Assembly: GCA_044349815.1 (NCBI GenBank)
Contig: JBIKQE010000001.1
Span: 1 to 38,969 of the forward strand
DNA: 38,969 nucleotides
Source: Chitinophagaceae bacterium
GTDB lineage: Bacteria > Bacteroidota > Bacteroidia > Chitinophagales > Chitinophagaceae
Direction: 5' to 3'
This document shows positions 4,006-38,969 of the stretch, piece after piece (within the stretch, counting starts at the first letter, position 1; each line of letters opens with the position of its first letter). The notes below the pieces were generated by a model, which saw only the letters and a program-made list of their open reading frames with translations, ran no database searches and was not told the origin of the DNA. Made by a program: the position numbers and the translations under genes.

Positions 4006-5559
4006 GTGGAAAAAGAACTGGTTATACAATCCTCTGAAACGGGGATTGAGATTGCCTTGTTGGAAAACAAGAAAATCGTTGAACTACACTACGATAACTC
4101 GGGGGGTAGCTTCAATGTAGGCGACTTGTATTTAGGCAAGGTTAAGAAAATTATGCCCGGTTTGAACGCGGCCTTCGTCGATATTGGTCACGAAAAAGAT
4201 GCCTTTCTTCACTACACCGATCTAAGTCCTCAATTTAAAAGCTTACAAAAGTTTACCCAAACCGCCATTTCCGATAATGGCAGTAAGCCCTTCCACTTTG
4301 GCGATTTCGCCCTCGAAGAAGATATTGTAAAAACAGGCAAAATGTCGGAAGTAGCCGGCAATAAACCCTTTGTATTGGTTCAAATTTTAAAAGAACCGAT
4401 CTCTTCCAAAGGCCCCCGAATCAGTTGCGAACTCTCTATCCCGGGCCGCTTCTTGGTAATGACCCCCTTCAATAATTTTGTGTCCATCTCACGCAAAATT
4501 CAATCAACCGAAGAGCGCAAACGACTACAACGCATCATCGAAAGTATCAAGCCCAAAAACTTTGGTATTATTGTGCGCACCGCCGCCGAAGGACAAAGCA
4601 CCGCCGAACTCCATCAAGATTTACTTCAGATGGAAGAAGCCTGGAAAATGATTTTTCAAAACCTCCAAGGGGCTAAAGCAGGACAAAAAATTCTGAGCGA
4701 ACAAAACAAAACCACTTCCCTACTTCGCGACCTCCTCAATAAAGATTTTAACCGCATCCTCGCCAACGACGCCGGCATCGTTAAAGAAGCCAAAGAATAC
4801 ATCGCACGCATTGCCCCAGGCCACGAAAAAATTGTGCAAATGCACACAGGCACTGCTTCCGTGTTCGATTCCTTGGGTATTTCAAAACAAGTTAAATCGT
4901 CGTTCGGCAAAACCGTTATGATGGATAGCGGCGGCTATTTAGTAATCGAACATACCGAAGCCCTCCACGTTATCGACGTCAACAGTGGCCACAAATTCTC
5001 GAGCCCCGATCAAGAAGCCAACGCCTTCAATACCAATATCGAAGCCGCCGAAGAAATTGCGCGCCAATTGCGTTTACGCGATATCGGCGGTATTATCGTT
5101 GTCGATTTCATCGATATGCGCAACCCCGATCACCGTCGCGATATCGTGCAGGCCATGGAGCGCTTCATGAAAAAAGACCGCGCCCGGCACACCGTATTGC
5201 CCCTCTCGAAATTCGGGTTGCTCCAAATCACCCGCCAACGCCTTCGCCCCGAAATCAATATCAGCACCGTTGAAACCTGCCCCAGTTGCCAAGGCAGTGG
5301 CAAAGTGCGCTCCTCGCAACTTCTCCTCGACGATATTGAAAAACACATCAAATATTTGTTGGGCAACCTCAACACCGCCGTCGAATTGGTGGTGCACCCC
5401 ATCGTAAAATCGCACCTCACCAAAGGACTCCTCTGGAACTCGATTTTCGCAAAATGGAAGAAAAAATACGGCTCCTTCACCCTCATCGACGACGAAGGCT
5501 ACGAATTCTTACAATACAAATTCTTCGACAAAAACACCGGCGAAGAAATGAAGTTTTAG
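4006..5559 (+). CDS. rng: Ribonuclease G/E family (Rne/Rng)
   Basis: N-terminal S1-like domain (GDLYLGKVKKIMPGLNAAFVDIG), catalytic core (GIIVRTAAEG, ALHVIDVNSG, GGIIVVDFIDM, GLLQITRQR) and a CPSCQGSG zinc link. GTG start. Confidence 0.85.
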   Translation: MEKELVIQSSETGIEIALLENKKIVELHYDNSGGSFNVGDLYLGKVKKIMPGLNAAFVDIGHEKDAFLHYTDLSPQFKSLQKFTQTAISDNGSKPFHFGDFALEEDIVKTGKMSEVAGNKPFVLVQILKEPISSKGPRISCELSIPGRFLVMTPFNNFVSISRKIQSTEERKRLQRIIESIKPKNFGIIVRTAAEGQSTAELHQDLLQMEEAWKMIFQNLQGAKAGQKILSEQNKTTSLLRDLLNKDFNRILANDAGIVKEAKEYIARIAPGHEKIVQMHTGTASVFDSLGISKQVKSSFGKTVMMDSGGYLVIEHTEALHVIDVNSGHKFSSPDQEANAFNTNIEAAEEIARQLRLRDIGGIIVVDFIDMRNPDHRRDIVQAMERFMKKDRARHTVLPLSKFGLLQITRQRLRPEINISTVETCPSCQGSGKVRSSQLLLDDIEKHIKYLLGNLNTAVELVVHPIVKSHLTKGLLWNSIFAKWKKKYGSFTLIDDEGYEFLQYKFFDKNTGEEMKF

Positions 5560-5574
5560 GGCTACTCGTTGGGG

Positions 5575-5700
5575 CTGTCATCTTCCTTTCTTTCTTCAAC
5601 AACTATCGGGCTACGCCGGGCTCCGCTATCGCTTCGGTGGCCGCCTGCGGCAGGCCACTAAACCCTTTGTATCCCGCAGCCTTTGAACCAATTACATCCT
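5575..5700. repeat. GC-rich mosaic intergenic repeat, copy 1
   Basis: It contains the modules gctccgctatcgcttcggtgg, the hairpin tggcc-gcctgcggca-ggcca (5638-5657) and atcccgcagcc. These modules recur in the copies at 14.8, 18.8, 37.9 and 38.9 kb. Confidence 0.55.
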
Positions 5701-5782
5701 TCGTCTTTCCTTCAATTCCGTATCAAAAAAAACGAAGCCAACACACATAGCATTCAGGTCGGTTCAATTCCCTAAAAAATGC

Positions 5783-5790
5783 TACTTTTG
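5783..5790 (+). promoter_or_regulatory. Bacteroidota -7 promoter box TACTTTTG upstream of the E2 gene
   Basis: Exact match to the TAnnTTTG consensus, 23 nt upstream of the ATG at 5813. Confidence 0.35.
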
Positions 5791-5812
5791 AGCAAATTTT
5801 ATACAAACATCT

Positions 5813-7438
5813 ATGGCTGAAGTAATTCGAATGCCTTTGTTGAGTGATACCATGACGGAAGGCGTAATTGCCCGTTGGAATAAACAAGTGGGCGATTCCG
5901 TTAAAAGCGATGAATCTATTGCCGATGTTGAAACCGATAAAGCCACGATGGAAGTAATTCCTTACGTGGATGGAACCTTGCTGTACATTGGCGTTGAGCA
6001 AGGCAAGGCCGCTAAAGTAAACGATATTATTGCCATCATCGGGAAACCCGGTGAAGATATTCAGTCCTTACTCCAAACGCCAACTGCATCAGTGACCTTT
6101 GAACCCGCACCTGCCGCACCAAGCGCAGCACCCGCACCTGCAACCCCCACGGCCGAACTTACTATCCCAAAAGATATCACCGTTATTCGAATGCCGCTCC
6201 TCAGCGACACCATGAAGGAAGGTAAAATTGTAGCATGGCATAAACAAGTAGGTGATATGGTGAAAGCCGACGATGTACTTGCCGATGTGGAAACCGATAA
6301 AGCCACGATGGAAGTAGTTGGTTACGCCGAAGGGGTTTTGTTATACCAAGGTGTAAAAGCCGGCGAAGCCGCTGTTGTGAATGGTGTGATTGCTGTTGTA
6401 GGAAAAGCCGGTACCGATTTAACCCCGTTTATGGCGGCTATACTAGCCCCCGAAGTAACAGGTAACGCATCAACTGCCGCTCAACCCGCATCAACGCCAT
6501 CGGTGGCTACGCCAACGGCAACAACCACACCAAGCACCGAAGTGCATCACGATACCGATGCCCGCATCAAAGCATCGCCCCTTGCTCGTCAAATAGCCCA
6601 GCAAAAAGGAATTAATCTTCATACGATTCATGGCTCAGGCGATAATGGCCGTATTGTTAAACGCGATGTGGATGCTGCCGTGTCGTCACCAAAGACAAGC
6701 ACCTCGCCAACAACACAAGCATCAGTACAGGTATCGGTGCCAACATTCATTGGCCAAGAAGGTTATACCGATACGCCGGTAACGCAAATGCGCAAAGTAA
6801 TTGCCCAACGCTTGAGCGAAAGCAAATTCACCGCGCCGCATTTCTATCTGAAAATGAGCGTTTATATGGACGCGCTTCTTGATGCCCGTAAAAAAATAAA
6901 CAACCAAACCGAAACAAAAATTTCGGTGAACGATTTTATTATCAAGGCCGTAGCGATGGCCCTCGAAAAACACCCTGGTGTAAACAGCAGCTGGTTAGGC
7001 GATACGATCCGTCAATACCATCACATCCATATTGGCAGTGCCATTGCTTTAGAGGAAGGCCTGATTGTTCCGGTGGTGCGCCACGCCAACATGAAGTCGC
7101 TTAGCCAAATTGCAGCCGATGCCGCTTCGCTTTACGACAAAGCCCGAAATAAAAAAATTCAACCCGCCGAATTCACCGGCAATACTTTCACCATTTCTAA
7201 TTTAGGCATGATGGGTATCGACGAATTCACGGCTATCGTTAACCCACCCGATGCCTGCATTTTGGCCGTGGGTAAAACAACGCCAACACCCGTGGTAGAA
7301 GGAACTGATATTACCATTAAACAGGTTATGAAATTAACCCTAAGTTGCGATCATCGTGTAGTGGATGGTGCCGTTGGTGCTAGGTTCTTACAAACGCTTA
7401 AAACATACTTGGAAGAACCCTTGTTGATGTTTGTTTAA
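5813..7438 (+). CDS. Dihydrolipoamide acetyltransferase (E2) of a 2-oxoacid (pyruvate) dehydrogenase complex, with two lipoyl domains
   Basis: Two copies of MPLLSDTM.EG.I..W.KQVGD.V..D..(I/L)ADVETDKATMEV, Ala/Pro-rich linkers, a peripheral subunit-binding domain (ASPLARQIAQQKGINL) and the catalytic motif SCDHRVVDGA. Confidence 0.9.
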   Translation: MAEVIRMPLLSDTMTEGVIARWNKQVGDSVKSDESIADVETDKATMEVIPYVDGTLLYIGVEQGKAAKVNDIIAIIGKPGEDIQSLLQTPTASVTFEPAPAAPSAAPAPATPTAELTIPKDITVIRMPLLSDTMKEGKIVAWHKQVGDMVKADDVLADVETDKATMEVVGYAEGVLLYQGVKAGEAAVVNGVIAVVGKAGTDLTPFMAAILAPEVTGNASTAAQPASTPSVATPTATTTPSTEVHHDTDARIKASPLARQIAQQKGINLHTIHGSGDNGRIVKRDVDAAVSSPKTSTSPTTQASVQVSVPTFIGQEGYTDTPVTQMRKVIAQRLSESKFTAPHFYLKMSVYMDALLDARKKINNQTETKISVNDFIIKAVAMALEKHPGVNSSWLGDTIRQYHHIHIGSAIALEEGLIVPVVRHANMKSLSQIAADAASLYDKARNKKIQPAEFTGNTFTISNLGMMGIDEFTAIVNPPDACILAVGKTTPTPVVEGTDITIKQVMKLTLSCDHRVVDGAVGARFLQTLKTYLEEPLLMFV

Positions 7439-7501
7439 AACACGTTTCACAAAGCAACTTGAAGCATGAATCAAGGTATAACATCTAATAAATTTTAGTT
7501 C

Positions 7502-9559
7502 ATGAAATATGTTGTTCGTGCCATATTGTTCTTGTTTGTTTTTTCAGTTAATACGGCTTGGGCACAAGTCAACAATTATTTTTTTTCGCAGTCCTTATCA
7601 ACGTATACCGTCATCAATGGTACACAAATCGATTCGCTCAACGAAGATGATGTGTTTCATAAGAATATTCCAATTGGCTTTTCATTCACCTATAATGGTA
7701 ATGTAACCGACAGGATAGGAATTTGTAGCAATGGGTTTATTGTAATGGATAGCTTAAACCACTCTGCCTTGTGGACGCCTACCAATGGGTCTATTAATCA
7801 AATTAATGTACTCATGGCCAATCTGAAAAATATCAATCCAACAGGTAGTATTCAATACGCCACGTTGGGTACTGCTCCCAATCGAGTATGTGTTGTTCAG
7901 TGGAAAGAGTATGGCATATCCGGACTAGCCCTTTGCCGATTGAATGCGCAAATTCGTTTGTACGAAGGAAGTAATTGTATTCAATTGTGTTATGGCACCA
8001 ATTTGTTGTCGGGTAATGCCGGTAAATCGTTCAATGTAGGGTTGGTAGGAAATAATTTCAACGATTATAGTTTACGAACCGGCAACGTTAATTGGGTAAA
8101 TAGCAATAAGTCTACTTCTTATCCGGGCCCCGGCTTGTTTTTGAATCCGCTGGTGGTATTACCAGCCGGCTTGGTGTATAGCTATGGTAATTGTCCGCCA
8201 GCCGGCATTCCGTATTATTACATTCGCGGTAGTGTTTATAAAGATGTCAATAACAATGGTGTGCGCGATGGTGGAGAACTCGGCATGCCCAACATAACCG
8301 TGTACGATAGTCTGCAAGCTGAATATACCAATACCGACAATAACGGCGATTATTCATTGCCCTTCCACGATTCCCTTCAAGTGTATCGCGTTAAAGTTCT
8401 TCCCCCCAATTATTATACTATATCGTCTACACCCGTTTCGTATAGTTTGTACCCCGATACACAATCGGTTGTTAATCGCAGCTTTGGTTTGTATGCACTG
8501 CCTTACAAATACGATATGCGCATTGCATCAACGTCCTTGAATGTGCCGGGAGCAGGTAAAATAGTCACCCTCTCAACAAGCTACCAGAATGTAGGAACAT
8601 CTTTGTTGACCGGCGATACAATTTTTCTTAAAAAAGATGCTCGTTATTCGTTGGTCAATGCCAACCCAACACCCGATTACATCAGTGGCGATACATTGGC
8701 TTGGGTTTACAGCAATTTGCAAGTAGACGAGTACCGCCATATTTTACTAACGCTTCTAACGAGCAATACGGTAAATGCGGTCGATACGTTACGCTCTGTT
8801 TGGACGGCCAAACCCATTGTAAACGACACGGTTCCTTCCAACAATCAATGCTACTTGAATCAACGCACCAATGTAATATCATCACCCAACGGTAAAAGTG
8901 TAGTGCCCGACGGATTAACGCTTCAGGGTACTGAATTGGTTTATACCATTCGTTTCCAAAATACAAACAGCGGATTTAGTCCCGAAAATGTGATTGTTCG
9001 CGATACGCTAAATGCCAACCTCGATTTTGCTAGTTTCCGATTGTTAGGAGCAACTCATCCATTAACGTATACCCTTTCGGGCAATGGAGCCTTGCAATTT
9101 ACTTTTGCAGGTATCAACTTGCCCGATAGCACGAGCAATGAACCAGCCAGTCATGGTGCCGTTTCATATACTATCAACCCGAAACCCGGCTTACCCGAAA
9201 ATACCACCATCCCCAATCGTGCTTTTATTGGTTTCGATTTTCAGTCCGCTGTTCAAACCAACACAACACAAAATATTATAGTGTCGGCATGGCCCAATAG
9301 CTTGCAATCGTTGGCAAGCGCAATTTCGGCAACCGTATATCCTAACCCAAGCACCAACCGTGTTTACATCCATGTACTCCAACCGCTTGGTGCAACTCGG
9401 TTTACGCTCTGCAATCAAACAGGTAGTGTTGTTCTCAACGAACAACATCTGCTAAACGAAACTACTTCCTTATCGCTGGCCCATTTGCCATCCGGTATTT
9501 ATTATTTAACCATGCAATGGGAACAAGGAAAACAAACCGTTCAACTGATTCGTAAATAA
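7502..9559 (+). CDS. Large secreted T9SS cargo protein (SdrD-B/DUF11-like repeats + Por C-terminal sorting domain)
   Basis: Signal peptide (ILFLFVFSVNTAWAQ), an SdrD B-like segment (GSVYKDVNNNGVRDGGELGMPNITV), and a C-terminus ATVYPNPSTNRVYI..SGIYYLTMQ..GKQTVQLIRK typical of a T9SS CTD. Confidence 0.75.
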   Translation: MKYVVRAILFLFVFSVNTAWAQVNNYFFSQSLSTYTVINGTQIDSLNEDDVFHKNIPIGFSFTYNGNVTDRIGICSNGFIVMDSLNHSALWTPTNGSINQINVLMANLKNINPTGSIQYATLGTAPNRVCVVQWKEYGISGLALCRLNAQIRLYEGSNCIQLCYGTNLLSGNAGKSFNVGLVGNNFNDYSLRTGNVNWVNSNKSTSYPGPGLFLNPLVVLPAGLVYSYGNCPPAGIPYYYIRGSVYKDVNNNGVRDGGELGMPNITVYDSLQAEYTNTDNNGDYSLPFHDSLQVYRVKVLPPNYYTISSTPVSYSLYPDTQSVVNRSFGLYALPYKYDMRIASTSLNVPGAGKIVTLSTSYQNVGTSLLTGDTIFLKKDARYSLVNANPTPDYISGDTLAWVYSNLQVDEYRHILLTLLTSNTVNAVDTLRSVWTAKPIVNDTVPSNNQCYLNQRTNVISSPNGKSVVPDGLTLQGTELVYTIRFQNTNSGFSPENVIVRDTLNANLDFASFRLLGATHPLTYTLSGNGALQFTFAGINLPDSTSNEPASHGAVSYTINPKPGLPENTTIPNRAFIGFDFQSAVQTNTTQNIIVSAWPNSLQSLASAISATVYPNPSTNRVYIHVLQPLGATRFTLCNQTGSVVLNEQHLLNETTSLSLAHLPSGIYYLTMQWEQGKQTVQLIRK

Positions 9560-10536: not shown

Positions 10537-12573
10537 ATGACCTACTACTCGTTCTCTCCTATGGGGAGACTCCTGCTATGCTGGATGGCAGGCATTATGG
10601 CAACCACTTGGGGCCATCCTGCTAACAACCTCGCTTTATGGGCTGGGGCTTTTTGCCTGTTGTTGACAGTTTTTATATTTGAAAACCGTCGGCCTGCTGA
10701 TCGCCAACCCCAATTCATGACCATCTTATTAATGCTGTTGCCTTTTTCGCTCAGCATTGTAAACACCCAACAAATGGATGAACGCCGATGGCACAACCAT
10801 TATACGCACGTGCCCGATTCGGTTTATAATGCCACGGTGCGTATTCTTCAGCCCGCCGAAGAGAAACCCAAAACCATCAAATTGTGTGTGGCCTTGGAAA
10901 CCTATCGGGTGGGCGATACGCCCAAAAACATCCGCGGAACCATGTGGTTGTACATCAATAAAACCAACTTGCCACAGGCTTTGTTTTGGCCCGGACAATC
11001 ACTCTATGTTCGTCTTAAACCCCAATCCATTTCAACTCCAAATTTGCCGGGGGCATTTAATTTTTCAGCTTATGCCGCTCGCCAACAAGTGTATGCTACG
11101 GCATTTTTAACATCGTCGGATTGGTGTTTTGTCAATAAAAAACCGAATGGCTTGGCCGCTCAACAAGTTAAAATAACGCATACGCTAAAAACAATCCTGG
11201 CCCAAGGCATTCCCGATTCGAATGCCTTGGGTATTGCTGAAGCCCTTTTATTCGGCTATCGGGGCGATATCGATAACAGTACGTGGGAGGCCTATGCACG
11301 AAGTGGTATTGTGCACGTAATTGCCATTTCGGGCATGCATTTAGGGTTAGTATACACATCCTTGGTGTTTCTGTTTTCGTGGTTACCCGGTAAACGCAGA
11401 ACGGCTGTAGTGCCCGCCATAATTTGCTTATGGATTTTTGCTTGGATTACGGGTATGCCTGCTTCCGTTATGCGTGCAGCCCTTATGTTTACCCTGCTAG
11501 GCCTTGGTCAATTGCTCGGCCAAAAAACCGATACCCTCAATACCCTTCTCGCTTCTGCCTTGTTGATTTTGATTGTTGACCCTATGCAATGCTACGATGT
11601 TGGGTTTCAATTATCGTATTGGGCCGTATTGAGTTTGCATTTTTTTTATACCCCCATCCGTCAAAAAATACAAGTGTTCTTTCCAACGCGTTGGGCGCCT
11701 GTAGCACAATTAATAGCCGCTACCTTATCGGCACAAGTACTCACCACGCCATGGATGTTATTTTTATTTCATCAGGTGCCACTATGGGTTTTGCTTACTA
11801 ATCTTATGGCAGTGCCATGGTCCACGCTTTTAATTTATGCCGAGTTGTTATGGGTGTTCTTATGGCCTTGGCACGAACATGTTCAGTTTTTGGGAACAGC
11901 TATCACCCACGCCATTGTAGCCTTGAACAAGATAGCCCAATGGGTTGGCAGTCGCTCCGATGCCGTTTGGCAAACCAGTGCATGGTCGGTAGCCGAAATA
12001 CTGTTTTTATATGCTAGCATAGCTGCCATGTATGTGTGGCACTTAGCCCGCAAACCCCGCTATGCCTTGTGGGTATTATGGACCATGGCCGGCTTAAGTG
12101 CTACCATGGCTTACGAAGAAGTTAAGGCCTCTTCGGAAGAAGCATGCATTGTATATTATCAAAAACCACAAGTGGCTATGCAGGTATATGCAAACCAACA
12201 ACAAGTGTTGCTGGCACCCACCATGCCAAGGGCATTTTGGGCTTATCAATGGCAACCCCTCATGGCTAGCTTACACCTCGATTCGAACAAACAATTACCC
12301 CATCGTACATACACAAACAACGGAATTAAGGCCTTGATGGCCAATCGTAAACTGTTGGTATATTTAGAGAAACCTTATGTTGTACGCCGTCCCATCAAGG
12401 TGGAAGTATTGGTTTTGGGCAAGTATTGTACACCCGGACCGTGGTTGAGTAGTTGGCAGGCCAAAGTGGCCATTTGTTGTTCGTATAAATCGGCCACGGC
12501 CTATACGCAGCATATCGATTCCCTTATTTATTTGAAGCAATCGGGCGCTTGGCGGGGTTTTACAAGTCCTTAA
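10537..12573 (+). CDS. comEC: ComEC/Rec2-family DNA internalisation channel protein
   Basis: Polytopic membrane protein with the competence-domain motif SGIVHVIAISGMHLG. No HxHxDH metallo-beta-lactamase domain is visible. Confidence 0.75.
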   Translation: MTYYSFSPMGRLLLCWMAGIMATTWGHPANNLALWAGAFCLLLTVFIFENRRPADRQPQFMTILLMLLPFSLSIVNTQQMDERRWHNHYTHVPDSVYNATVRILQPAEEKPKTIKLCVALETYRVGDTPKNIRGTMWLYINKTNLPQALFWPGQSLYVRLKPQSISTPNLPGAFNFSAYAARQQVYATAFLTSSDWCFVNKKPNGLAAQQVKITHTLKTILAQGIPDSNALGIAEALLFGYRGDIDNSTWEAYARSGIVHVIAISGMHLGLVYTSLVFLFSWLPGKRRTAVVPAIICLWIFAWITGMPASVMRAALMFTLLGLGQLLGQKTDTLNTLLASALLILIVDPMQCYDVGFQLSYWAVLSLHFFYTPIRQKIQVFFPTRWAPVAQLIAATLSAQVLTTPWMLFLFHQVPLWVLLTNLMAVPWSTLLIYAELLWVFLWPWHEHVQFLGTAITHAIVALNKIAQWVGSRSDAVWQTSAWSVAEILFLYASIAAMYVWHLARKPRYALWVLWTMAGLSATMAYEEVKASSEEACIVYYQKPQVAMQVYANQQQVLLAPTMPRAFWAYQWQPLMASLHLDSNKQLPHRTYTNNGIKALMANRKLLVYLEKPYVVRRPIKVEVLVLGKYCTPGPWLSSWQAKVAICCSYKSATAYTQHIDSLIYLKQSGAWRGFTSP

Positions 12574-12632
12574 GGAGGCAAACTTTTTTACCCCCTCATA
12601 TCGGTCTATCTTTGCCCCGCTCAACCACGTTT

Positions 12633-14120
12633 ATGAACAAGAAAATTCAATCGGCCCTGATTTCGGTTTTTTATAAAGACGGATTAGATACGCTCGCACA
12701 AACCTTACACAAGCTCGGTGTTACTATTTATTCCACCGGGGGCACCCAACAATTCATCGAACAATTGGGTATTCCTTGCGTGGGTGTTGAAACAGTAACC
12801 GGTTATCCTTCTATTTTAGGTGGCCGTGTAAAAACCTTGCACCCTAAAATGTTTGGAGGCATTCTTGGTCGCCGGGCAAACGAACAAGATGTACAGGAAA
12901 TGGCGCAATACGATATTCCGGTACTCGATTTAGTGATTGTTGATTTGTATCCGTTCGAAGAAACCGTTGCGAATACGACCGACGAAAAACTCATCATTGA
13001 AAAAATAGATATCGGTGGTCCGTCTATGATTCGTGCTGCCGCTAAAAATTTTAGCGATGTGGTGGTACTCGCTTCCAAAAGCGATTATGCGGTATTGAAT
13101 CACATGCTTGTAACACAGCATGGCGAAACCACGGCAGAACAACGTAGGGCCTTTGCCGCCAAAGCCTTCGAGGTTGTGAAGCATTACGATATGGCCATTG
13201 CCGATTATTTCAATGCCGATACCACGGTGTTGCGTTACGGCGAAAACCCACACCAGCAAGCCCGATTCATTGGTAAGCTGAACGAATGGTTCACGCAATT
13301 AAACGGCAAAGAATTATCGTACAATAATTTAGTAGATGTTGATGCCGCCATGCAACTCATGCACGATTGCACCAACCATACCAACGCGGTATTTGCTATC
13401 ATCAAACACACCAATGTATGTGGTATCGCTGAACGAATTGGTGTTCATACGGCCTGGGAAGCGGCCTTGGCGGGCGATCCTGAAAGTGCCTTTGGCGGGG
13501 TGTTGGCCTGTAATCAACCCATCGATCGCTCAACCGCCGAAGCCATCAACGACATCTTTTTTGAAGTGTTGCTGGCACCCGCATTCAGTGCCGATGCCCT
13601 TGAATTATTAAAACAAAAAAAGAACCGCATTTTACTGGAAACAAAAACCATTGATTTACCAACGCAACAAGAAAAGTCGTTGTTGAATGGCCGTGTTATT
13701 CAAGATAACGACCACGGCACAGAAGCTACTTGGAACGAAGTGGGTGGCCGCGAAACCACCGATGCCGAAGCCGACGATTTGCGTTTTGCCAATATGGTGG
13801 CCAAACATTTAAAATCGAATGCCATTGCCTTGGTGAAACACAAGCAATTGATTGGTAAAGGCTGCGGACAAACATCGCGGATTGATGCTTTGCGTCAGTC
13901 GCTCGACAAAGCCCGACAGTTCGATTTTGACTTGGATGGTGCCGTGATGGCCTCCGATGCCTTCTTCCCCTTCGACGATTGTGTGCGTATGGGCCACGAA
14001 GCCGGCATCACTGCCTTTATTCAACCCGGTGGCAGTATTCGCGATAAAGACTCCATTCAATATTGTCAAGAACAAGGTCTCGCCATGGTAATTACCGGCA
14101 CCCGCCATTTTAAGCATTAA
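12633..14120 (+). CDS. purH: Bifunctional IMP cyclohydrolase / AICAR formyltransferase
   Basis: MNKKIQSALISVFYKDGL..STGGT..GGRVKTLHP..DLVIVDLYPFE..IDIGGPSMIRAAAKN..YGENPHQ. The ATG at 12633 is preferred to the track start at 12549, which overlaps comEC and adds 28 non-conserved residues. Confidence 0.9.
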   Translation: MNKKIQSALISVFYKDGLDTLAQTLHKLGVTIYSTGGTQQFIEQLGIPCVGVETVTGYPSILGGRVKTLHPKMFGGILGRRANEQDVQEMAQYDIPVLDLVIVDLYPFEETVANTTDEKLIIEKIDIGGPSMIRAAAKNFSDVVVLASKSDYAVLNHMLVTQHGETTAEQRRAFAAKAFEVVKHYDMAIADYFNADTTVLRYGENPHQQARFIGKLNEWFTQLNGKELSYNNLVDVDAAMQLMHDCTNHTNAVFAIIKHTNVCGIAERIGVHTAWEAALAGDPESAFGGVLACNQPIDRSTAEAINDIFFEVLLAPAFSADALELLKQKKNRILLETKTIDLPTQQEKSLLNGRVIQDNDHGTEATWNEVGGRETTDAEADDLRFANMVAKHLKSNAIALVKHKQLIGKGCGQTSRIDALRQSLDKARQFDFDLDGAVMASDAFFPFDDCVRMGHEAGITAFIQPGGSIRDKDSIQYCQEQGLAMVITGTRHFKH

Positions 14121-14712: not shown

Positions 14713-14744
14713 AAAAGCCGCCTTGAAAAGGGCGGTTTTTTTTT
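14713..14744 (+). terminator. Rho-independent terminator
   Basis: aaaagccgcc-ttgaaaag-ggcggttttttttt, a GC stem followed by a 9-T run, 20 nt after the stop codon. Confidence 0.7.
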
Positions 14745-14749
14745 GAAGC

Positions 14750-14905
14750 TCGGCGATATCTCTTTATTCAACACCCGTCTTGCTGTCCGCTCCAAAGCCC
14801 TCACCCACTCCGCTTCGCTACATGGCCTCGGTGTTTTCCGCTACCATCAAGGCTAGTTTTCATCGTTTGGAAGGGGGCTTCAGCGGGGGAACAGCCAGGG
14901 GTTGA
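14750..14905. repeat. GC-rich mosaic repeat, copy 2 (left flank of the AT-rich island)
   Basis: Contains periodic TCCGCT words (gtccgctcc, ctccgcttcgctac, ttccgctaccatc) and ctcacccactcc. Related words occur in the copies at 18.7 and 38.9 kb. Confidence 0.5.
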
Positions 14906-15028
14906 GTAGTTTTATAGAACTAACTACAAATATGTTTTAATGGAAATGAGAGAGGGACATATTGATGTTATTGGGGGAGATATTTGGGGGATGGGTATCG
15001 CTTTGAAAGTGAATGGGTGTAATTTTGT

Positions 15029-15121
15029 TTAACGCTTAACGATATTTTTTAACTCTATTGCGCACTTAACGGTGATATGTTAAGGGGGAGTAGTTAAAGG
15101 TATAAGTGATTTGACGTTAAG
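15029..15121 (+). promoter_or_regulatory. Cluster of TTAAC(G) words upstream of the island's first gene, including the palindrome CTTAAC-N8-GTTAAG
   Basis: cttaacg at 15035-15041 and 15065-15071; the inverted copy cgttaag at 15115-15121; gttaag at 15079-15084, forming an inverted pair with 15065-15070. Confidence 0.3.
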
Positions 15122-15142
15122 CTCAAGAATATTAAATGGTTT

Positions 15143-16138
15143 ATGAAATACAGTTACTCAAAAACTATACAGGAACTTAAGGATCACGCATTAATACCTG
15201 TTGGTGATATTTACGAATTTGAATCCGCGAGAATTGCTCCGATTTACGAAAGATATTATCAGTTTTGCCAAGAAAATCTAGAAGAGAAATCAAATGAATA
15301 CAATATTCAACCATCAAGATTTTATTTTAGAAATAAATTCGGTATAAATGCTCAGGCAGGATATCAGAATGGTATTTATATTGTCGGAGTAAATATGTCT
15401 ACTATAGATTCTTTGTATTCACTCTTGCATGAAAGAAACGACATTTTTGAAGTAGATAAATGTTTATCGGAGTTATACGGCTCGTTAATTTCAGAATTTG
15501 ATGTTCCTGTTGGTCATTTGATGTTCCAACTATCGACATTGTTTATTTTCTATCATGAGAAGGCTCATTTAGGCCAATTTTCTGGAGAATCACATGAATG
15601 GTTAACTGAGGTTTTGAAAACGGAATATTCTGCCGAACGCCATGCATTAGAATTAGATGCTGATATTGATGCCGCACACTTCATCTGTTTTCATCTTTTG
15701 GAATATTTCAAAAAATTATCTCCACAAGAAAGAACTTCAGAGAATTTGGAAAAAACACTTTCAATTGGAATAGCTAGTATATTTTCTTATTTTTTAATAT
15801 ATTTTGAAAGAAGTGGTGATATATACTTTAATGAACATTCTCATCCTCATACTTTAGTAAGAATAAGTTATATACTTGACTGTATGATAAGAGTAGCTGA
15901 ACATAATCTTCCTGATGATATAACCATTAATTCAGTAAAAGTCCTCAATGAAAGTTTCAAAATTACCGATCAATATTACAAAAGGGTTAATGACTCTGAT
16001 TTGGTTAAAGATTTTATTAATCAGTTCAAAATTGAAGCCAACAAAATAACTGACTATGTAAATACACTCTTGGAATTTTCTAAGAGAATGCCGAATTTGA
16101 TCAAGAATAGATTCAGCCTGCCGCCAATAAAAGGCTAA
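15143..16138 (+). CDS. Island ORF A: 331-aa HExxH protein, a putative zinc metallopeptidase with ImmA/IrrE-like motif spacing
   Basis: HEKAH at residues 138-142 (nt 15554-15568), followed about 25 residues later by ERHALELDADIDAAHF. This resembles the HExxH...E..A(N/D)..A arrangement of ImmA/IrrE peptidases. No signal peptide or TM helix. Very AT-rich codon usage. Confidence 0.5.
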   Translation: MKYSYSKTIQELKDHALIPVGDIYEFESARIAPIYERYYQFCQENLEEKSNEYNIQPSRFYFRNKFGINAQAGYQNGIYIVGVNMSTIDSLYSLLHERNDIFEVDKCLSELYGSLISEFDVPVGHLMFQLSTLFIFYHEKAHLGQFSGESHEWLTEVLKTEYSAERHALELDADIDAAHFICFHLLEYFKKLSPQERTSENLEKTLSIGIASIFSYFLIYFERSGDIYFNEHSHPHTLVRISYILDCMIRVAEHNLPDDITINSVKVLNESFKITDQYYKRVNDSDLVKDFINQFKIEANKITDYVNTLLEFSKRMPNLIKNRFSLPPIKG

Positions 16139-16296
16139 TACGCAAGCGCGGCTGGATGTATTGGCTGATTTTTTTTCATTATTTAGTTTTGGGAATTAAG
16201 TTAAACTGATTATCTTTATTTTCATACCTGCGTTTGCCTGCAACTTTTATGCACAACAACTATATATATGCTAAATAAATTTAAATAACAAAAACA

Positions 16297-17169
16297 ATGC
16301 AAACTTTCTTGCCAATTAATAAATGCATTTATTGTGGTGAAACCAATAATTTAACTGATGAACATATTGTACCATTTAGTCTAAATGGCACATGGATACT
16401 TCCAAAATCTAGTTGTTTAGATTGCGCAAAAATCACTTCAGCATTTGAAGGAAGAGTTGCAAAAATGTTTGCTTCATTTAGACAATCTTCAAATTTGAAA
16501 ACAAGAAGGCCAAAAAAAAAGAAACAAACCATTTCATTAAGAGATGATAGATGTAATATTATAGAAATGCCAAATGAAGGAATGTGGGACATTATTCCAA
16601 CTTTTAAATTTAGTTTACCAGGTATATATAACAAAGATTGGAACTTATCAAAAAAATGGGAGGAAACAACTCTTGGCATTATGACTAATCATCCAAATGA
16701 AACAAAGTTGTCGCATTGGAAGAAATTTAGTACCAATACTTTTATCTATGAATCCTCATCATTTGATATTAACAGTTATGCTCTTATGCTAGCCAAAATT
16801 GGCCATTGTATTGCTGTTGGACATTATGGGTTTGACAATTTTGATCACTTTTTAACTCCTTTTATTTTAGGAAATGATAAAGTAAACTTCAGTTTAACAC
16901 TTGATTCCCCTAACCTAAATACCAAACCAAATAGTTTAATTTCAATAAATTTATCATATTTCGTAGGAAGCTTTAATGAAATATTACCTCCTAAATTATT
17001 CGATCACGAATACGGATTTGAGCTACAAAAAAGTGATATCCCTAATGTGCAATATTTGATATATTCTCGTGTTAGACTTTTTCCATTTGCTGGAGGACCT
17101 ACGGCATGTGTTGTTGTTGGAAAAGCAAATCAACAACAATATTTAAAGTGTCTTAATCATCAGAAATAA
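16297..17169 (+). CDS. Island ORF B: 290-aa protein with an N-terminal HNH/beta-beta-alpha-Me zinc-finger nuclease-like motif and an unrecognised C-terminal domain
   Basis: C10-x2-C13 ... D-E-H23-I-V-P ... C40-x2-C43 (KCIYCGETNNLTDEHIVPFSLNGTWILPKSSCLDCAK), then the basic patch KTRRPKKKKQ. I do not recognise the remaining ~200 residues. Confidence 0.5.
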   Translation: MQTFLPINKCIYCGETNNLTDEHIVPFSLNGTWILPKSSCLDCAKITSAFEGRVAKMFASFRQSSNLKTRRPKKKKQTISLRDDRCNIIEMPNEGMWDIIPTFKFSLPGIYNKDWNLSKKWEETTLGIMTNHPNETKLSHWKKFSTNTFIYESSSFDINSYALMLAKIGHCIAVGHYGFDNFDHFLTPFILGNDKVNFSLTLDSPNLNTKPNSLISINLSYFVGSFNEILPPKLFDHEYGFELQKSDIPNVQYLIYSRVRLFPFAGGPTACVVVGKANQQQYLKCLNHQK

Positions 17170-17349
17170 ACTAGCCTGCTTTATACGTAACATCCGGTTT
17201 TCGCCAATTGGCTAATGTGATTCCAAATGGTGTTGAAGCTGTTCAGTTGTTAACAGTTTGTCAATAAATTGCTTTGATTATTTCTCTGAAATGAAAATTC
17301 GTAATAAAATAATTGATTTTTAAATAAGTCTAGATTTTGATAAAAACCT

Positions 17350-17391
17350 TTACATTTGCAATCAAATTTTACATTTAAATTTATTACATTT
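17350..17391 (+). promoter_or_regulatory. Three direct TTACATTT repeats; the first forms a perfect TAnnTTTG -7 box (TACATTTG, 17351-17358)
   Basis: TTACATTT at 17350, 17369 and 17384, 29-70 nt upstream of the ORF C start codon. Confidence 0.35.
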
Positions 17392-17419
17392 ACAAAGGCG
17401 TCATAAAGAACCTCTTTTT

Positions 17420-17947
17420 ATGCTAGCAATAAATACATACAATTCTTTTGACAATAATTTGACCAATGCGAAAGCAGTTGTTGGTTTGGAGTTGCTATAC
17501 GAAAGTTTTAGAAAACAAGTCGGAAAGTTTTTTATACTAATGGTGGTTTGTTTAGTATGTCTACCTTTTTTGTTACTATTTGGTTTATGGTTACAAACCA
17601 AACGTAAGAGTTTTCAAAAACACATGAAAAGAGATGTTAAATCATTTAGAAATTATAGTGAATACCAAGAATTTAAAGAGTATTTATCAAAATTAGATAA
17701 CCTAATGCCCTCATTAAATAAGGTAAATAAATATAATCTTAAAAAGGTTCCATTTCCTTTTAAATATACTTTAACTCAAATGCAGAAAATGGCATCAACA
17801 ATTGTTACTTATAACGATTGGCAAAAAAGTAGGCTAAATAGTCTGAACGATGAACAATTTAAAAGCAATGGTAGTCAAGTATTCAAGCATATTTCAGAGA
17901 GAGAATTATGGAATAATAGGAACCAAGCTTACCAATATTGGTTTTAG
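17420..17947 (+). CDS. Island ORF C: 175-aa single-pass membrane protein of unknown function
   Basis: One strongly hydrophobic helix (FFILMVVCLVCLPFLLLFGLWL), followed by a basic stretch (KRKSFQKHMKRDVK) and a ~110-aa Lys/Asn-rich domain. No motif I recognise. Confidence 0.45.
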   Translation: MLAINTYNSFDNNLTNAKAVVGLELLYESFRKQVGKFFILMVVCLVCLPFLLLFGLWLQTKRKSFQKHMKRDVKSFRNYSEYQEFKEYLSKLDNLMPSLNKVNKYNLKKVPFPFKYTLTQMQKMASTIVTYNDWQKSRLNSLNDEQFKSNGSQVFKHISERELWNNRNQAYQYWF

Positions 17948-17950
17948 ATA

Positions 17951-18463
17951 ATGTTTATATCGTTCTACGTTTTTTCAAAACTAAATTTTGTTACAAAAAA
18001 AATTGGTGATGATGTTCTCATTGAACACACCTATGCTTTTAGAGGTAAAACAGGTAAAAGGTATATCGTTACCGTTGAACAATATGACTATTCAATACAT
18101 ATTATAAAATTTTGTTTACAAGAAAGAAAGATTTATTCAGATAGATTTAATCAATTGACACATCTCAATGAATGTAGTAGGGTTCTTACAACAATAGGTG
18201 AAATAATGAAACATGTTCTTAAGAAAAACCCATTTGCATCATTTGGTTTTGTTGGTACAAACTTACCTGTTGAGGAAAAAAATAATACAAAACGTTTTAA
18301 ACTATACAGAAGGGTGGTTAGTCAAATTATTTCTCCTGTTGCATTTGAGCATAAATATTCACAAAGGCATAGCGCATATTTACTTCTAAATAGGAATAAT
18401 CAAGAGATTGATTTATTGAATAAAGTAACTGTTATGTTTGAAAGAATTTACTTATTACAGTAA
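17951..18463 (+). CDS. Island ORF D: 170-aa soluble protein of unknown function, translationally coupled to ORF C
   Basis: It starts 3 nt after the ORF C stop codon. No TM helix or signal peptide and no motif I recognise. Same AT-rich composition. Confidence 0.45.
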   Translation: MFISFYVFSKLNFVTKKIGDDVLIEHTYAFRGKTGKRYIVTVEQYDYSIHIIKFCLQERKIYSDRFNQLTHLNECSRVLTTIGEIMKHVLKKNPFASFGFVGTNLPVEEKNNTKRFKLYRRVVSQIISPVAFEHKYSQRHSAYLLLNRNNQEIDLLNKVTVMFERIYLLQ

Positions 18464-18712
18464 TTTTTTTTTTAATTTAAGTTATTGTTTTCTCAAGTTT
18501 GGTTTTTCTATTATCTGGTGTTCCACATTCGGTGAAGTGAATTCGTTTAAAAGTGTTATGCTATTGAGTTTAGAATAACGTCTTGTTGTCTGTGTGCTTA
18601 TGCCCAATTTCAATTACAGGTACTTTAGTGCTCTGTGTAATTAAGTTTTCACAACATCGTCAATTTTCTATAGATAGTTGTGCTAACATCCTTTTAATCT
18701 AGCAAATCAAGT

Positions 18713-18965
18713 AAACCCCGCAACATCCTCGCCCACTCCATTTTTATATAGACAACGCAATTGAGGCGAGAAACGATGCGGAGAAGATAGGATGTGACAC
18801 AAACCACGTGTGAAAATGTTGTTTCGTTTGCTGAAGAAAGAAGAAGGCGCTGATCCGCCTCAGGCGGATAGCCCCGATTGAAACGGATAGCTCCGCGTTC
18901 CGCAGGACGCGGACTAGGAGTGGAAAGCGGGAAGAAGCTGACGAAAGCGATGCTGATGCGCTTCG
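18713..18965. repeat. GC-rich mosaic repeat, copy 3 (right flank of the AT-rich island)
   Basis: cctcgcccactcc at 18728-18740. Perfect hairpins atccgcc-tca-ggcggat (18853-18869) and tccgcgt-tccgcagg-acgcgga (18892-18913). The central word agccccgattgaaacggatagc is the reverse complement of gctatccgtttcaatcggggct, which matches 18 of 22 positions with gctttccattgccatcggggct at 37.9 kb. Confidence 0.55.
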
Positions 18966-37382: not shown

Positions 37383-37755
37383 GGGGCCGCCCGGTTTTGA
37401 CAGCTTAGCTCTTTGAACGTGTAAGCATGTCGTGCGTTGGATAATTAGCACGTTAATCTGAATATTCAAATCTCAAATGGCGAAACTTCGTTCGCTATGG
37501 CTGCTTAGTTAGACTAGGTATCCATTATGGCCCCTCATTTCGGGTTTAATTTTTGACCTACGTTGAGCCGCCTTCATCAGACAATAAAAGTTGCGGCATC
37601 GCCAGGCTGTGCGCGATGCTTAAGTACCATCCAGCTAAGGGTGCAGTAGGTTGGTTTCTGTCCGGCTCACCCCAACAATCAATACGAAACTAAACATGTA
37701 GAAAGCGTTCGACGAATAGGTTTGGACAGGGGTTCGACTCCCCTCGGCTCCACTA
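37383..37755 (+). ncRNA. ssrA: Transfer-messenger RNA (tmRNA)
   Basis: The 5' GGGGCCG pairs with the 3' CGGCTCC, with a G3:U wobble (alanine identity). The T-arm reads GGACAGGGGTTCGACTCCCCTC. The tag reading frame ggc gaa act tcg ttc gct atg gct gct tag (37479-37508) encodes GETSFAMAA*, a Bacteroidota-type tag. The terminal CCA is not fully encoded; the genome reads CTA. Confidence 0.9.
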
Positions 37756-37814: not shown

Positions 37815-37955
37815 CTTTTCTTTGAAGCCCATCTTCTCCTCTCCCTTCATCCCCCGTCCCGCTGTTCATTCCAAGTCCTCGCCGCCTGCGGACGGCTCCG
37901 GGCTTTCCATTGCCATCGGGGCTATACCCTCATCGTCCGATTCGTTCTTCAGCTA
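37815..37955. repeat. GC-rich mosaic repeat, copy 4
   Basis: Hairpin gccg-cctgcgga-cggc (37881-37896), followed by gctttccattgccatcggggct. This is the same module order as the reverse complement of copy 3. Confidence 0.55.
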
Positions 37956-38122
37956 CTAACTACCATACATTCATTTAGCTATATATTATTGTTTCGATGA
38001 AAATAGCTTGGTTACATAACATAATTGCCAAGGGATTTAATTTGAATTAATTCGAATAAATATTTATCGTAAGAAATCAAGTATAACATAAAAACTATAA
38101 TTTTACCCGTTATATTATTTCC

Positions 38123-38851
38123 ATGCTTAAGCTATTCAAGTTCTTTAAGGACGTCTTGTTATTTATTCCGGTAACCCTGTTGCTGTCTCCATTTTCCACG
38201 TTTTTTCATTTTATTACGTACTTCAATAAATTATTGTTGTGGATCTATAAACACAAAAATGAGTTTTTGTGGAGCGATTATTTTAGTCCGTTTCGTGACT
38301 ATGCCAAACGCGAAAAATTATACGAATTTGTAGCCAATCATTTTAAGGTGCCTTCAGAACAAGTTACTTACATGGAATTCGGCGTAGCTTCCGGCGCCTC
38401 ATTTCGGTGGTGGTTAAATAAAAATACAAATCCGCAATCGACGTTTTTTGGCTTCGACACCTTTGAAGGCTTGCCCGAAGATTGGGGTGGGTTTTACAAC
38501 AAAGGGGATATGAGCCATAATGTTCCTTCGGTAAACGACACGCGTGCTGTTTTTGTGAAAGGCTTGTTTCAAGATACCTTGTCTGGCTTTATACAACAAC
38601 ATCACAACTTGTTACAATCGCCGCAGAAAAAAATTATTCATATGGATGCCGATTTGTATTCGGCCACCATTTTTACCTTGTCGCAACTTTATCCGTATTT
38701 GCGCAAAGGCGATATTATTATGTTCGATGAATTCAATGTGGCCTTGCACGAATTCAAAGCGTACTTAGAATTTACAGGTAACTTTTACATTACCTTGAAG
38801 CCCGTTGCGGCAGTAAATAATTTTTATCAGGCGGCTTTTGAGGTAGCCTAA
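38123..38851 (+). CDS. TylF/MycF-like class I SAM-dependent methyltransferase with a hydrophobic N-terminus
   Basis: YMEFGVASGASFRWW (SAM motif I), FGFDTFEGLPEDW, VFVKGLFQDTL and IHMDADLYSATIFTLSQLYPYLRKGDIIMFDEF, the macrocin-O-methyltransferase family pattern. Confidence 0.65.
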   Translation: MLKLFKFFKDVLLFIPVTLLLSPFSTFFHFITYFNKLLLWIYKHKNEFLWSDYFSPFRDYAKREKLYEFVANHFKVPSEQVTYMEFGVASGASFRWWLNKNTNPQSTFFGFDTFEGLPEDWGGFYNKGDMSHNVPSVNDTRAVFVKGLFQDTLSGFIQQHHNLLQSPQKKIIHMDADLYSATIFTLSQLYPYLRKGDIIMFDEFNVALHEFKAYLEFTGNFYITLKPVAAVNNFYQAAFEVA

Positions 38852-38854
38852 ACA

Positions 38855-38969
38855 GCCGAAGAGAGTTCCTTCGTTGGGCGGCTGCGGGATGCGCAGGGGA
38901 AGCACGCTAGCGCCGGAGTGGGAGCGGAGGCGAGAGCGTGCCGTAGCGAATGCGAAGCCCGTAGCAGCC
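38855..38969. repeat. GC-rich mosaic repeat, copy 5 (runs off the window)
   Basis: The reverse complement contains ctccgctcccactccggcgc and cctgcgcatcccgcagcc. It shares atcccgcagcc with copy 1 and the CCACTCC word with copies 2 and 3. Confidence 0.5.

Follow-up and report, generated by a model that had tools for sequence, protein, structure and literature searches.

An AT-rich four-gene islet lies between tlpA and mtaB

The 38,969-nucleotide (nt) stretch of a Chitinophagaceae bacterium analysed here (contig JBIKQE010000001.1, positions 1–38,969; hereafter designated the window) contains, between a tlpA-like gene (hereafter tlpA) and mtaB, a short AT-rich island with four open reading frames (ORFs A–D), all on the + strand. 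An earlier note on this DNA had proposed from the letters alone that these four genes make up an uncharacterised defence or abortive-infection module; the genes and their motifs are located as it described. The features of the island are as follows.

14906–18712, no strand: AT-rich horizontally acquired islet between the convergent tlpA-like gene and mtaB
15020–15027, + strand: −7 promoter box TAATTTTG of the Bacteroidota type, 123 nt upstream of ORF A
15143–16138, + strand: ORF A, 331 residues, HEKAH at residues 138–142, stand-alone unit
16149–16175, + strand: terminator-like hairpin with a T-run, directly after ORF A
16184–16191, + strand: −7 promoter box TAGTTTTG, 113 nt upstream of ORF B
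16297–17169, + strand: ORF B, 290 residues, C10xxC13, E22-H23 and C40xxC43, stand-alone unit
17351–17358, + strand: −7 promoter box TACATTTG, 69 nt upstream of ORF C
17420–17947, + strand: ORF C, 175 residues, single-pass membrane protein, upstream partner of ORF D
17951–18463, + strand: ORF D, 170 residues, soluble α/β protein, starting 3 nt after the stop codon of ORF C

The drop in composition noted earlier is indeed abrupt. The G+C content of 14906–18712 is 0.300 (30.0%), compared with 0.446 (44.6%) for the remaining window, and it falls from about 0.45 to 0.27–0.32 across positions ~14900 to 18700, with the edges placed at about 14900 and 18700 by 50-nt windows. Thirteen 500-nt windows within the island have a mean of 0.296 (range 0.254–0.326), whereas the 137 windows outside it have a mean of 0.446 (sd 0.034, minimum 0.346), giving a z value of −4.3 for the inside mean. 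The G+C content at third codon positions (GC3) follows the same course, being 0.25, 0.20, 0.26, and 0.19 in ORFs A, B, C, and D, respectively, against 0.43–0.58 in seven flanking genes (comEC, purH, tlpA, mtaB, an outer membrane protein gene, msrB, and msrA). The AT-rich DNA continues for 250 non-coding nt on the 3′ side of ORF D. In agreement with the earlier note, neither the ORF list nor searches with Pfam, PADLOC, NCBIfam, and PHROGs revealed an integrase, a transposase, or a phage structural gene in the island, and no tRNA gene occurs in the whole window. Direct or inverted repeats or element ends bounding the island were likewise absent, apart from short matches at chance level.

The intergenic space between tlpA and mtaB is the landing site of the island and, since the two genes are convergent, appears to be a harmless one. 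An exact look-up of the tlpA protein retrieved seven same-species contigs, all containing the island; six of the seven, compared as DNA, were at least 99.94% identical to the window. In the closest relative found with tlpA beside mtaB (locus L127; tlpA identity 89% in amino acids and 77% in nucleotides), the junction measures 1.2 kb and holds none of the four genes. It carries at 383–1339 on the − strand the gene of a 318-residue multi-pass membrane, transporter-like protein, which is of native G+C content and has no homologue anywhere in the window. The content of the junction thus varies between relatives. L127 was the one usable junction in the metagenome scan with tlpA. Nine loci retain purH–tlpA, several of them together with comEC, and have other genes downstream without a dip in G+C, and the scan of genome contigs with mtaB gave 80 loci of only 65–67% best identity and without synteny to tlpA or purH.

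From the shift in G+C and GC3, together with the different, native-G+C gene at the junction in L127, it is concluded that the island is real and compositionally foreign. That ORFs A–D are instead ordinary native genes of the lineage with an unusual composition is barely credible: the island does occur in all same-species contigs retrieved, but its GC3 lies 20–35 points below that of the neighbouring genes, the distribution of its families over phyla, phages, and plasmid-like contexts is patchy, and the 80 mtaB and 26 tlpA loci from relatives are all free of the four genes.

The four genes form three separate units

Co-occurrence of the four genes was examined by tblastn of ORFs A, B, C, and D against 203 loci (2.07 Mb), including the DNA around homologues of A, B, and D and the mtaB and tlpA loci of relatives; viral contigs were scanned with the family alignments. 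All four genes were found together in only six contigs, which are 99.94–100% identical to the window and therefore effectively one genome. Elsewhere, 6 loci had only A, 15 only B, 11 both C and D, and 2 only D, and in every other context examined the A, B, and C–D families occurred without one another within 6–8 kb. Thus, the four families, whose co-occurrence in other genomes the earlier note had made one of the tests of its four-gene system, do not co-occur among the 203 loci: beyond the species of the window, A and B were each met only by themselves, and the sole linkage is that of C with D.

The anatomy of the island gives the same picture. The spacers are 158 nt between ORFs A and B and 250 nt between ORFs B and C, and every one of the three units has a single TAnnTTTG box in the spacer before it (P = 0.007, from mononucleotide shuffles, that chance alone would put a box in all three). 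These spacers, each with its own promoter box, and the terminator-like hairpin behind ORF A suggest three transcription units, namely A, B, and C–D.

A single co-operating defence or abortive-infection system of four genes is therefore very improbable. The shared strand, the shared composition, the adjacency, and the persistence of all four genes in seven same-species contigs would speak for it, but the same-species contigs that were fetched are so nearly identical to the window that they amount to one genome, the three units lie apart in every other context examined, and the spacers with promoter boxes and the hairpin after ORF A argue for separate transcription. We conclude that the island consists of three unrelated mobile units lying side by side. 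That genes adjoin one another in an AT-rich islet does not make them a system, and the step from a protease-like protein, a nuclease-like protein, and a membrane protein to one anti-phage module is corrected accordingly. For each unit, at least one homologue neighbours known or candidate defence genes or is carried by a phage or prophage, and in the majority of the other genomes examined, the modules have a lower G+C content than the DNA flanking them.

The earlier note had also failed to recognise the combination as any named system. This holds for ORFs B, C, and D, which matched no model in PADLOC-DB v2.0, but not entirely for ORF A, whose match to Lit was the sole one in that database (E = 0.005) and has a counterpart in NCBIfam.

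ORF A is remotely homologous to the catalytic core of Lit

Lit is the phage-exclusion protease of the Escherichia coli prophage e14 (MEROPS/Pfam peptidase U49). When Gol, a peptide from the major capsid protein of T4, activates it, Lit cuts EF-Tu between Gly59 and Ile60, leading to abortive infection (PMC9712102). ORF A matched the NCBIfam model of Lit (NF007238) over residues 127–296 with an E value of 4.2e-7 (29.5 bits), and Lit was the only family matched recurrently by relatives of ORF A (9 of 22 and 17 of 67 members). An exhaustive profile search assigned to the A family 560 representatives of 50%-identity clusters, 260 of them with E ≤ 1e-30; the members are mostly about 330 residues long and match from end to end, and the near relatives found are mostly metagenomic.

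Residues H138, E139, H142, Q145, E170, D174, P235, H236, and R240 are invariant in 67 diverse relatives, and H138, E139, and H142 also in 22 close ones. An alignment of six Lit family members (E. coli Lit and five plasmid-borne proteins annotated as Lit family) has an invariant core of H160, E161, H164, E181, D185, H232, P233, and R238 in E. coli Lit numbering. When the two family alignments were compared by hhalign, they aligned over 102 columns (probability 71.5%, E = 3.6e-5), with H138, E139, H142, E170, D174, H234, P235, and R240 of ORF A placed on exactly these eight core residues, in the order given; E170, D174, H234, P235, and R240 are invariant or nearly so in the A family. With E. coli Lit as the single sequence, the comparison gave the A family only low probabilities (7.5% and 22%), and the N-terminal 115–125 residues of ORF A showed no alignment with Lit. 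A search of the PDB with the sequence profile of ORF A and a tblastn search of GenBank phages gave no match, and no paper describing this branch of U49-like proteins was found in the literature. These sequence comparisons make ORF A a distant relation of Lit, homologous in the catalytic core, rather than a Lit orthologue or equivalog; it is predicted to be a zinc metalloprotease with a Lit-like core.

The homologues of ORF A have no conserved partners and occur as single genes on mobile or accessory DNA. One of them directly follows the PADLOC candidate pair PDC-M62A/B (E = 3e-144 and 1e-88), a second lies among genes for a PLD/NgoFVII-type nuclease, a DNA methylase, a NERD helicase, and a DUF5677 protein, another adjoins an IS110 transposase, and one relative in a viral contig is a lone gene in the opposite orientation. 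The PDC-M62A/B pair, immediately upstream of the A homologue, occupies 5001–7897 of locus L001 (Fulvivirgaceae bacterium PWU4, JAHESF010000002.1), where a CoiA_N protein gene and an N6-methyltransferase-like gene are also nearby, in a compact defence island at the contig end. As for the Lit family itself, the gene on the Agrobacterium tumefaciens plasmid NZ_CP139999.1 (locus L210) appears split or truncated into a 185-residue "Lit family protein" and a 109-residue hypothetical protein; it lies between a DUF4238 gene and fragments of a GIY-YIG nuclease, in a small defence-type cluster that is decaying.

The 92 nt of 15029–15120, which lie between the −7 box and ORF A, contain three TTAACG hexamers and one CGTTAA; the whole 39-kb window contains 31 such hexamers. 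A regulator of ORF A may use the four as its operator.

ORF B belongs to an HNH_5-related family and has a compact predicted fold

ORF B matched the Pfam domain HNH_5 (PF14279) with an E value of 8.8e-5 and 22.8 bits, under the cut-off of 27.5. Since PF14279 is found in the precomputed annotation of most B homologues, the family as a whole can be regarded as HNH_5-related. Eight residues, C10, C13, E22, H23, C40, C43, E51, and R62, are invariant in 33 family sequences, and the zinc finger aligns with the HNH domain of PDB entries 8w2z and 8zq9, the former having the sequence CAVCN.

The AlphaFold2 model of ORF B (pLDDT 91.7, pTM 0.90) contains a strand–strand–helix arrangement spanning residues 19–57 (strands 19–23 and 33–40, helix 41–57), and the remaining ~240 residues form one compact domain together with the finger. 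Foldseek returned no match to this fold, the best E values being 0.31 in the PDB and 0.18 in BFVD, with HNH structures included. No PADLOC model matched any of the 33 family members at E < 0.001, and one of the 33 matched PtuB at E = 0.0026. The homologues of ORF B are solitary in bacterial and viral contigs. One adjoins the gene of a 915-residue KAP NTPase, and relatives occur in 13 IMG/VR viral contigs, in one case at the end of a Mu-like element.

ORFs C and D are a conserved, co-evolving pair

ORF C has one strong hydrophobic segment at residues 38–56 (Kyte–Doolittle 19-residue mean 3.0). It is followed by a strongly basic stretch, on which ground the C-terminal domain is probably cytoplasmic. 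The ORF D family has an invariant SFGF...E...NTKR..Y motif, and the AlphaFold2 model of ORF D was obtained with pLDDT 84.4 and pTM 0.82. A Foldseek search of the PDB gave the sub-significant matches SpeG (E = 0.045, TM score 0.37) and antizyme (E = 0.054), no Pfam acetyltransferase was matched by the family, and the sequence profile of ORF D found nothing in the PDB. The Pfam family DUF6934 was matched weakly by 10 of 40 D-family members (best E = 3.2e-4); accordingly, we regard ORF D as a distant DUF6934 member. It has a conserved phosphate-binding-like loop. A literature search found no paper mentioning DUF6934, and apart from this family neither ORF C nor ORF D matched a PHROG or a Pfam family of known function. 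In PHROGs, ORFs A and B and the phage-borne relatives of the island proteins likewise matched no family to which a function has been assigned.

In five independent contexts besides the window (L006, L007/8, L009/10, L201/2, and L198–200), C homologues with 30–57% identity lie 2–8 nt upstream of D homologues with 51–69% identity. The identities of C and D diverge in step, being 57/69, 53/64, 52/64, 50/61, and 30/51% pair by pair, and the loci have no common DNA similarity outside the coding region. ORFs C and D are thus a conserved, translationally coupled, and co-evolving pair. One pair lies in a Terrimonas restriction–modification island with type II and type III methyltransferases, a PLD nuclease, a helicase, and PrimPol, one in a prophage with P2-type tail genes, and two are solitary AT-rich islets. 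A diverged pair is carried by a temperate-phage-like contig of about 21 kb, in which it sits on the lysogeny strand between the gene of a 104-residue repressor-like protein and that of a tyrosine integrase (L198–L200, about 5100–7800; ENA ERZ27272000 and ERZ27271976, Logan SRR5260763). This contig is possibly the source, or a relative, of the C–D unit of the island. The accessions ERZ27272000 and ERZ27271976 are numerically near ERZ27272063, the sample of a contig identical to the window.

Such contexts raise two other explanations. According to the first, the island would be what remains of one or more prophages or integrative elements after decay, with genes left over that bring the host no present benefit. 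In line with it are the positions of C–D by an integrase in the lysogeny module of a phage and in a prophage, the distant D-like genes adjoining an integrase or a VirE-like primase, the viral contigs with relatives of ORF B (13) and ORF A (one), and the 250 nt of AT-rich non-coding DNA behind ORF D. Nevertheless, all four ORFs are intact and keep every family-invariant residue, neither in the island nor beside it can an att repeat, an integrase, or a fragment of a structural gene be detected, and intact solitary C–D pairs in at least two other genomes argue for selection on the pair itself. A phage origin is, moreover, compatible with a defence function, and we consider a functionless remnant unlikely.

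According to the second, C–D, and possibly A or B, would be selfish addiction modules of the toxin–antitoxin type. The pair is small, tightly spaced (2–8 nt), and co-evolving, it turns up in scattered places, both as solitary AT-rich islets and on mobile elements, and ORF D is weakly GNAT-like in fold; GNAT toxins of the TacT/AtaT type exist. On the other hand, ORFs C and D contain no DNA-binding, antitoxin-like domain and match no known toxin or antitoxin family, a 175-residue membrane protein is atypical as the partner of a GNAT toxin, and the GNAT similarity of ORF D is not significant, as the values for SpeG show. Addiction is slightly less likely still, and it would overlap with a defence function, since many toxin–antitoxin systems act in phage defence.

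Terminator, Flavo-1 copies, and other features of the window

Outside the island, the following features were located.

14717–14744, + strand: intrinsic terminator of the tlpA-like gene, GC hairpin GCCGCCTTGAAAAGGGCGG followed by T9, readable on the − strand as well
14772–14858, − strand: Flavo-1 copy in the left native flank (Rfam RF01705, 37.5 bits, below the gathering score of 42)
18866–18938, + strand: Flavo-1 copy in the right native flank, downstream of mtaB (RF01705, 50.1 bits, E = 4.7e-8)
37383–37755, + strand: tmRNA gene (114.9 bits)
37851–37927, − strand: third Flavo-1 copy, just after the tmRNA gene

The strong terminator that the earlier note had placed just before the island is present as a hairpin with T9 after tlpA; the hairpin scan gives it on the − strand. 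It is part of the native flank and not of the island. The GC-rich repeats noted on both sides of the island likewise proved real and were identified as copies of Flavo-1, in inverted orientation relative to each other, the left one having an E value of 1.9e-5 in a local search and 1.4e-4 for the whole window. The three copies in the window are mutually alignable, and the gathering score is reached by only one (18866–18938). Flavo-1 is a dispersed motif of unknown function, reported for Flavobacterium and found in either orientation relative to transcripts (PMC9723704; PMC2864571). Each of the three copies in the window lies just 3′ of a gene end (tlpA, mtaB, and tmRNA) and antisense to that gene, for which reason the two copies beside the island were assigned to the native flanks. 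With the third copy after the tmRNA gene, and each copy 3′ of a native gene, the Flavo-1 elements were rejected as ends of the island. Their placement suggests that the functional strand of the element, or its role, relates to 3′ ends or termination rather than to a free-standing small RNA.

Two further observations concern the window outside the island. A stretch of low G+C content (0.36) extends over 38001–38969, after the tmRNA gene and its Flavo-1 copy, and contains a 242-residue ORF at 38123–38851. As tmRNA genes are classic integration sites for islands, a second foreign segment may start at the end of the window. In the case of purH (12549–14120), the program-made reading frame (523 residues) starts at a TTG overlapping the end of comEC, whereas gene calls on an identical contig give 495 residues (PF02142, PF01808); the true start is probably the internal ATG (MNKKIQS...).

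A probable defence-type islet of three units

Collectively, the segment is probably a small, horizontally acquired defence-type islet made up of three independently mobile and independently transcribed units. The defence or abortive-infection character that the earlier note had seen in its gene content gains support from the remote homology of ORF A to the Lit family and from the neighbourhoods of the homologues.

Several points weigh against this explanation. A defence role is read from homology in the case of ORF A, and from neighbourhood alone in the cases of ORF B and the C–D pair, and the neighbourhood sample is small, comprising about 20 independent contexts without a background rate. 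Some homologues of ORF B and of C–D lie among housekeeping genes with no defence gene nearby. Distant D-like genes occur without C in two viral contigs, beside the integrase or VirE-like primase gene, and such a placement by integrase and replication genes could mean a role in the biology of the element itself. The similarity of ORF A to Lit is confined to about 100–170 core residues and reaches 29.5 bits against an equivalog cut-off of 274 bits; Peptidase_U49 (PF10463) gave no match to ORF A or 22 members of its family in the Pfam-A copy used, and is only "weak" in the collection's precomputed annotation. In ORF B and most of its relatives, the residue after the second CxxC is Ala, with Asn in a few; because Ala replaces the usual Asn or His, nuclease activity is uncertain, and the invariant E51 might substitute for the metal-binding Asn or His. 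Finally, the only relative keeping tlpA next to mtaB is distant, its tlpA DNA being 77% identical.

In the islet as we read it, each unit would act by itself. Abortive infection by a latent protease is, by analogy with Lit, the most economical model for ORF A: the protein would be inactive until a late protein of the phage appears, whereupon it would cut a protein essential to the host, as Lit cuts EF-Tu, so that translation stops and the infection is aborted. As the N-terminal half does not align, the trigger and substrate of ORF A may differ from those of Lit. ORF B would be a nuclease-type effector that nicks or cuts the nucleic acid of the invader or of the infected cell, and C–D would be a superinfection-exclusion or abortive-infection pair of the prophage type, one partner sensing the infection while the other exerts its effect at the membrane.

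More tentatively, and less likely than not, C–D may be a new two-component module for superinfection exclusion or abortive infection in temperate phages of Bacteroidota, and ORF B, separately, the founder of a new single-gene defence family whose HNH finger sits within a fold so far unmatched among structures. In that case, ORF C would be the membrane anchor and ORF D a soluble DUF6934-type sensor or enzyme, host chromosomes having captured the module repeatedly in the form of solitary islets.

Defence islets and Lit-type proteases are already known; ORF A is a new distant member of the latter, while ORF B and C–D are uncharacterised families, of which many such candidates exist. The phage defences of Bacteroidota have been little studied, and the locus adds three candidates from this phylum that can be tested separately. 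With ORF A, the Lit catalytic core reaches into a family of several hundred sequence clusters, and the divergent N-terminal half of the protein would make it possible to test triggers and substrates other than Gol and EF-Tu for Lit-type proteases. ORF B presents a confidently modelled fold without structural precedent, and the fixed membrane partner and the phage lysogeny position of C–D give the first functional lead for DUF6934-like proteins.

Comparison with known systems

The three Flavo-1 copies of the window match the covariance model of this RNA motif, and they differ from the motif as described in that all follow 3′ ends in antisense orientation and one passes the gathering score. ORF B shares with the HNH_5 (ββα-Me) nucleases the CxxC...(D/E)H...CxxC finger, which is invariant in its family, and is distinguished from them by its score under the Pfam cut-off and by Ala in place of Asn or His. 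From the Septu system (PtuA/PtuB) it differs in having no ATPase partner.

RexB and RexA of phage λ are a prophage two-gene exclusion module with a membrane partner and a cytoplasmic partner, of which RexB has four transmembrane segments. ORF C has one, and C–D shows neither sequence nor fold similarity to RexA and RexB; the likeness, an analogy and not a homology, lies in the coupling of a membrane protein with a soluble one and in the location, the rex genes being in the immunity region and C–D, in the phage contig, between the genes of the repressor-like protein and of the integrase.

In the case of Lit, the C-terminal core alone aligns, and ORF A stands in a separate, sizeable family of ~330-residue proteins. 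ORF A nonetheless shares with Lit the HExxH motif together with the downstream E-x3-D and H-P-x4-R motifs, a similar size (331 residues against 297), and the occurrence as a single-gene unit on mobile or accessory DNA.

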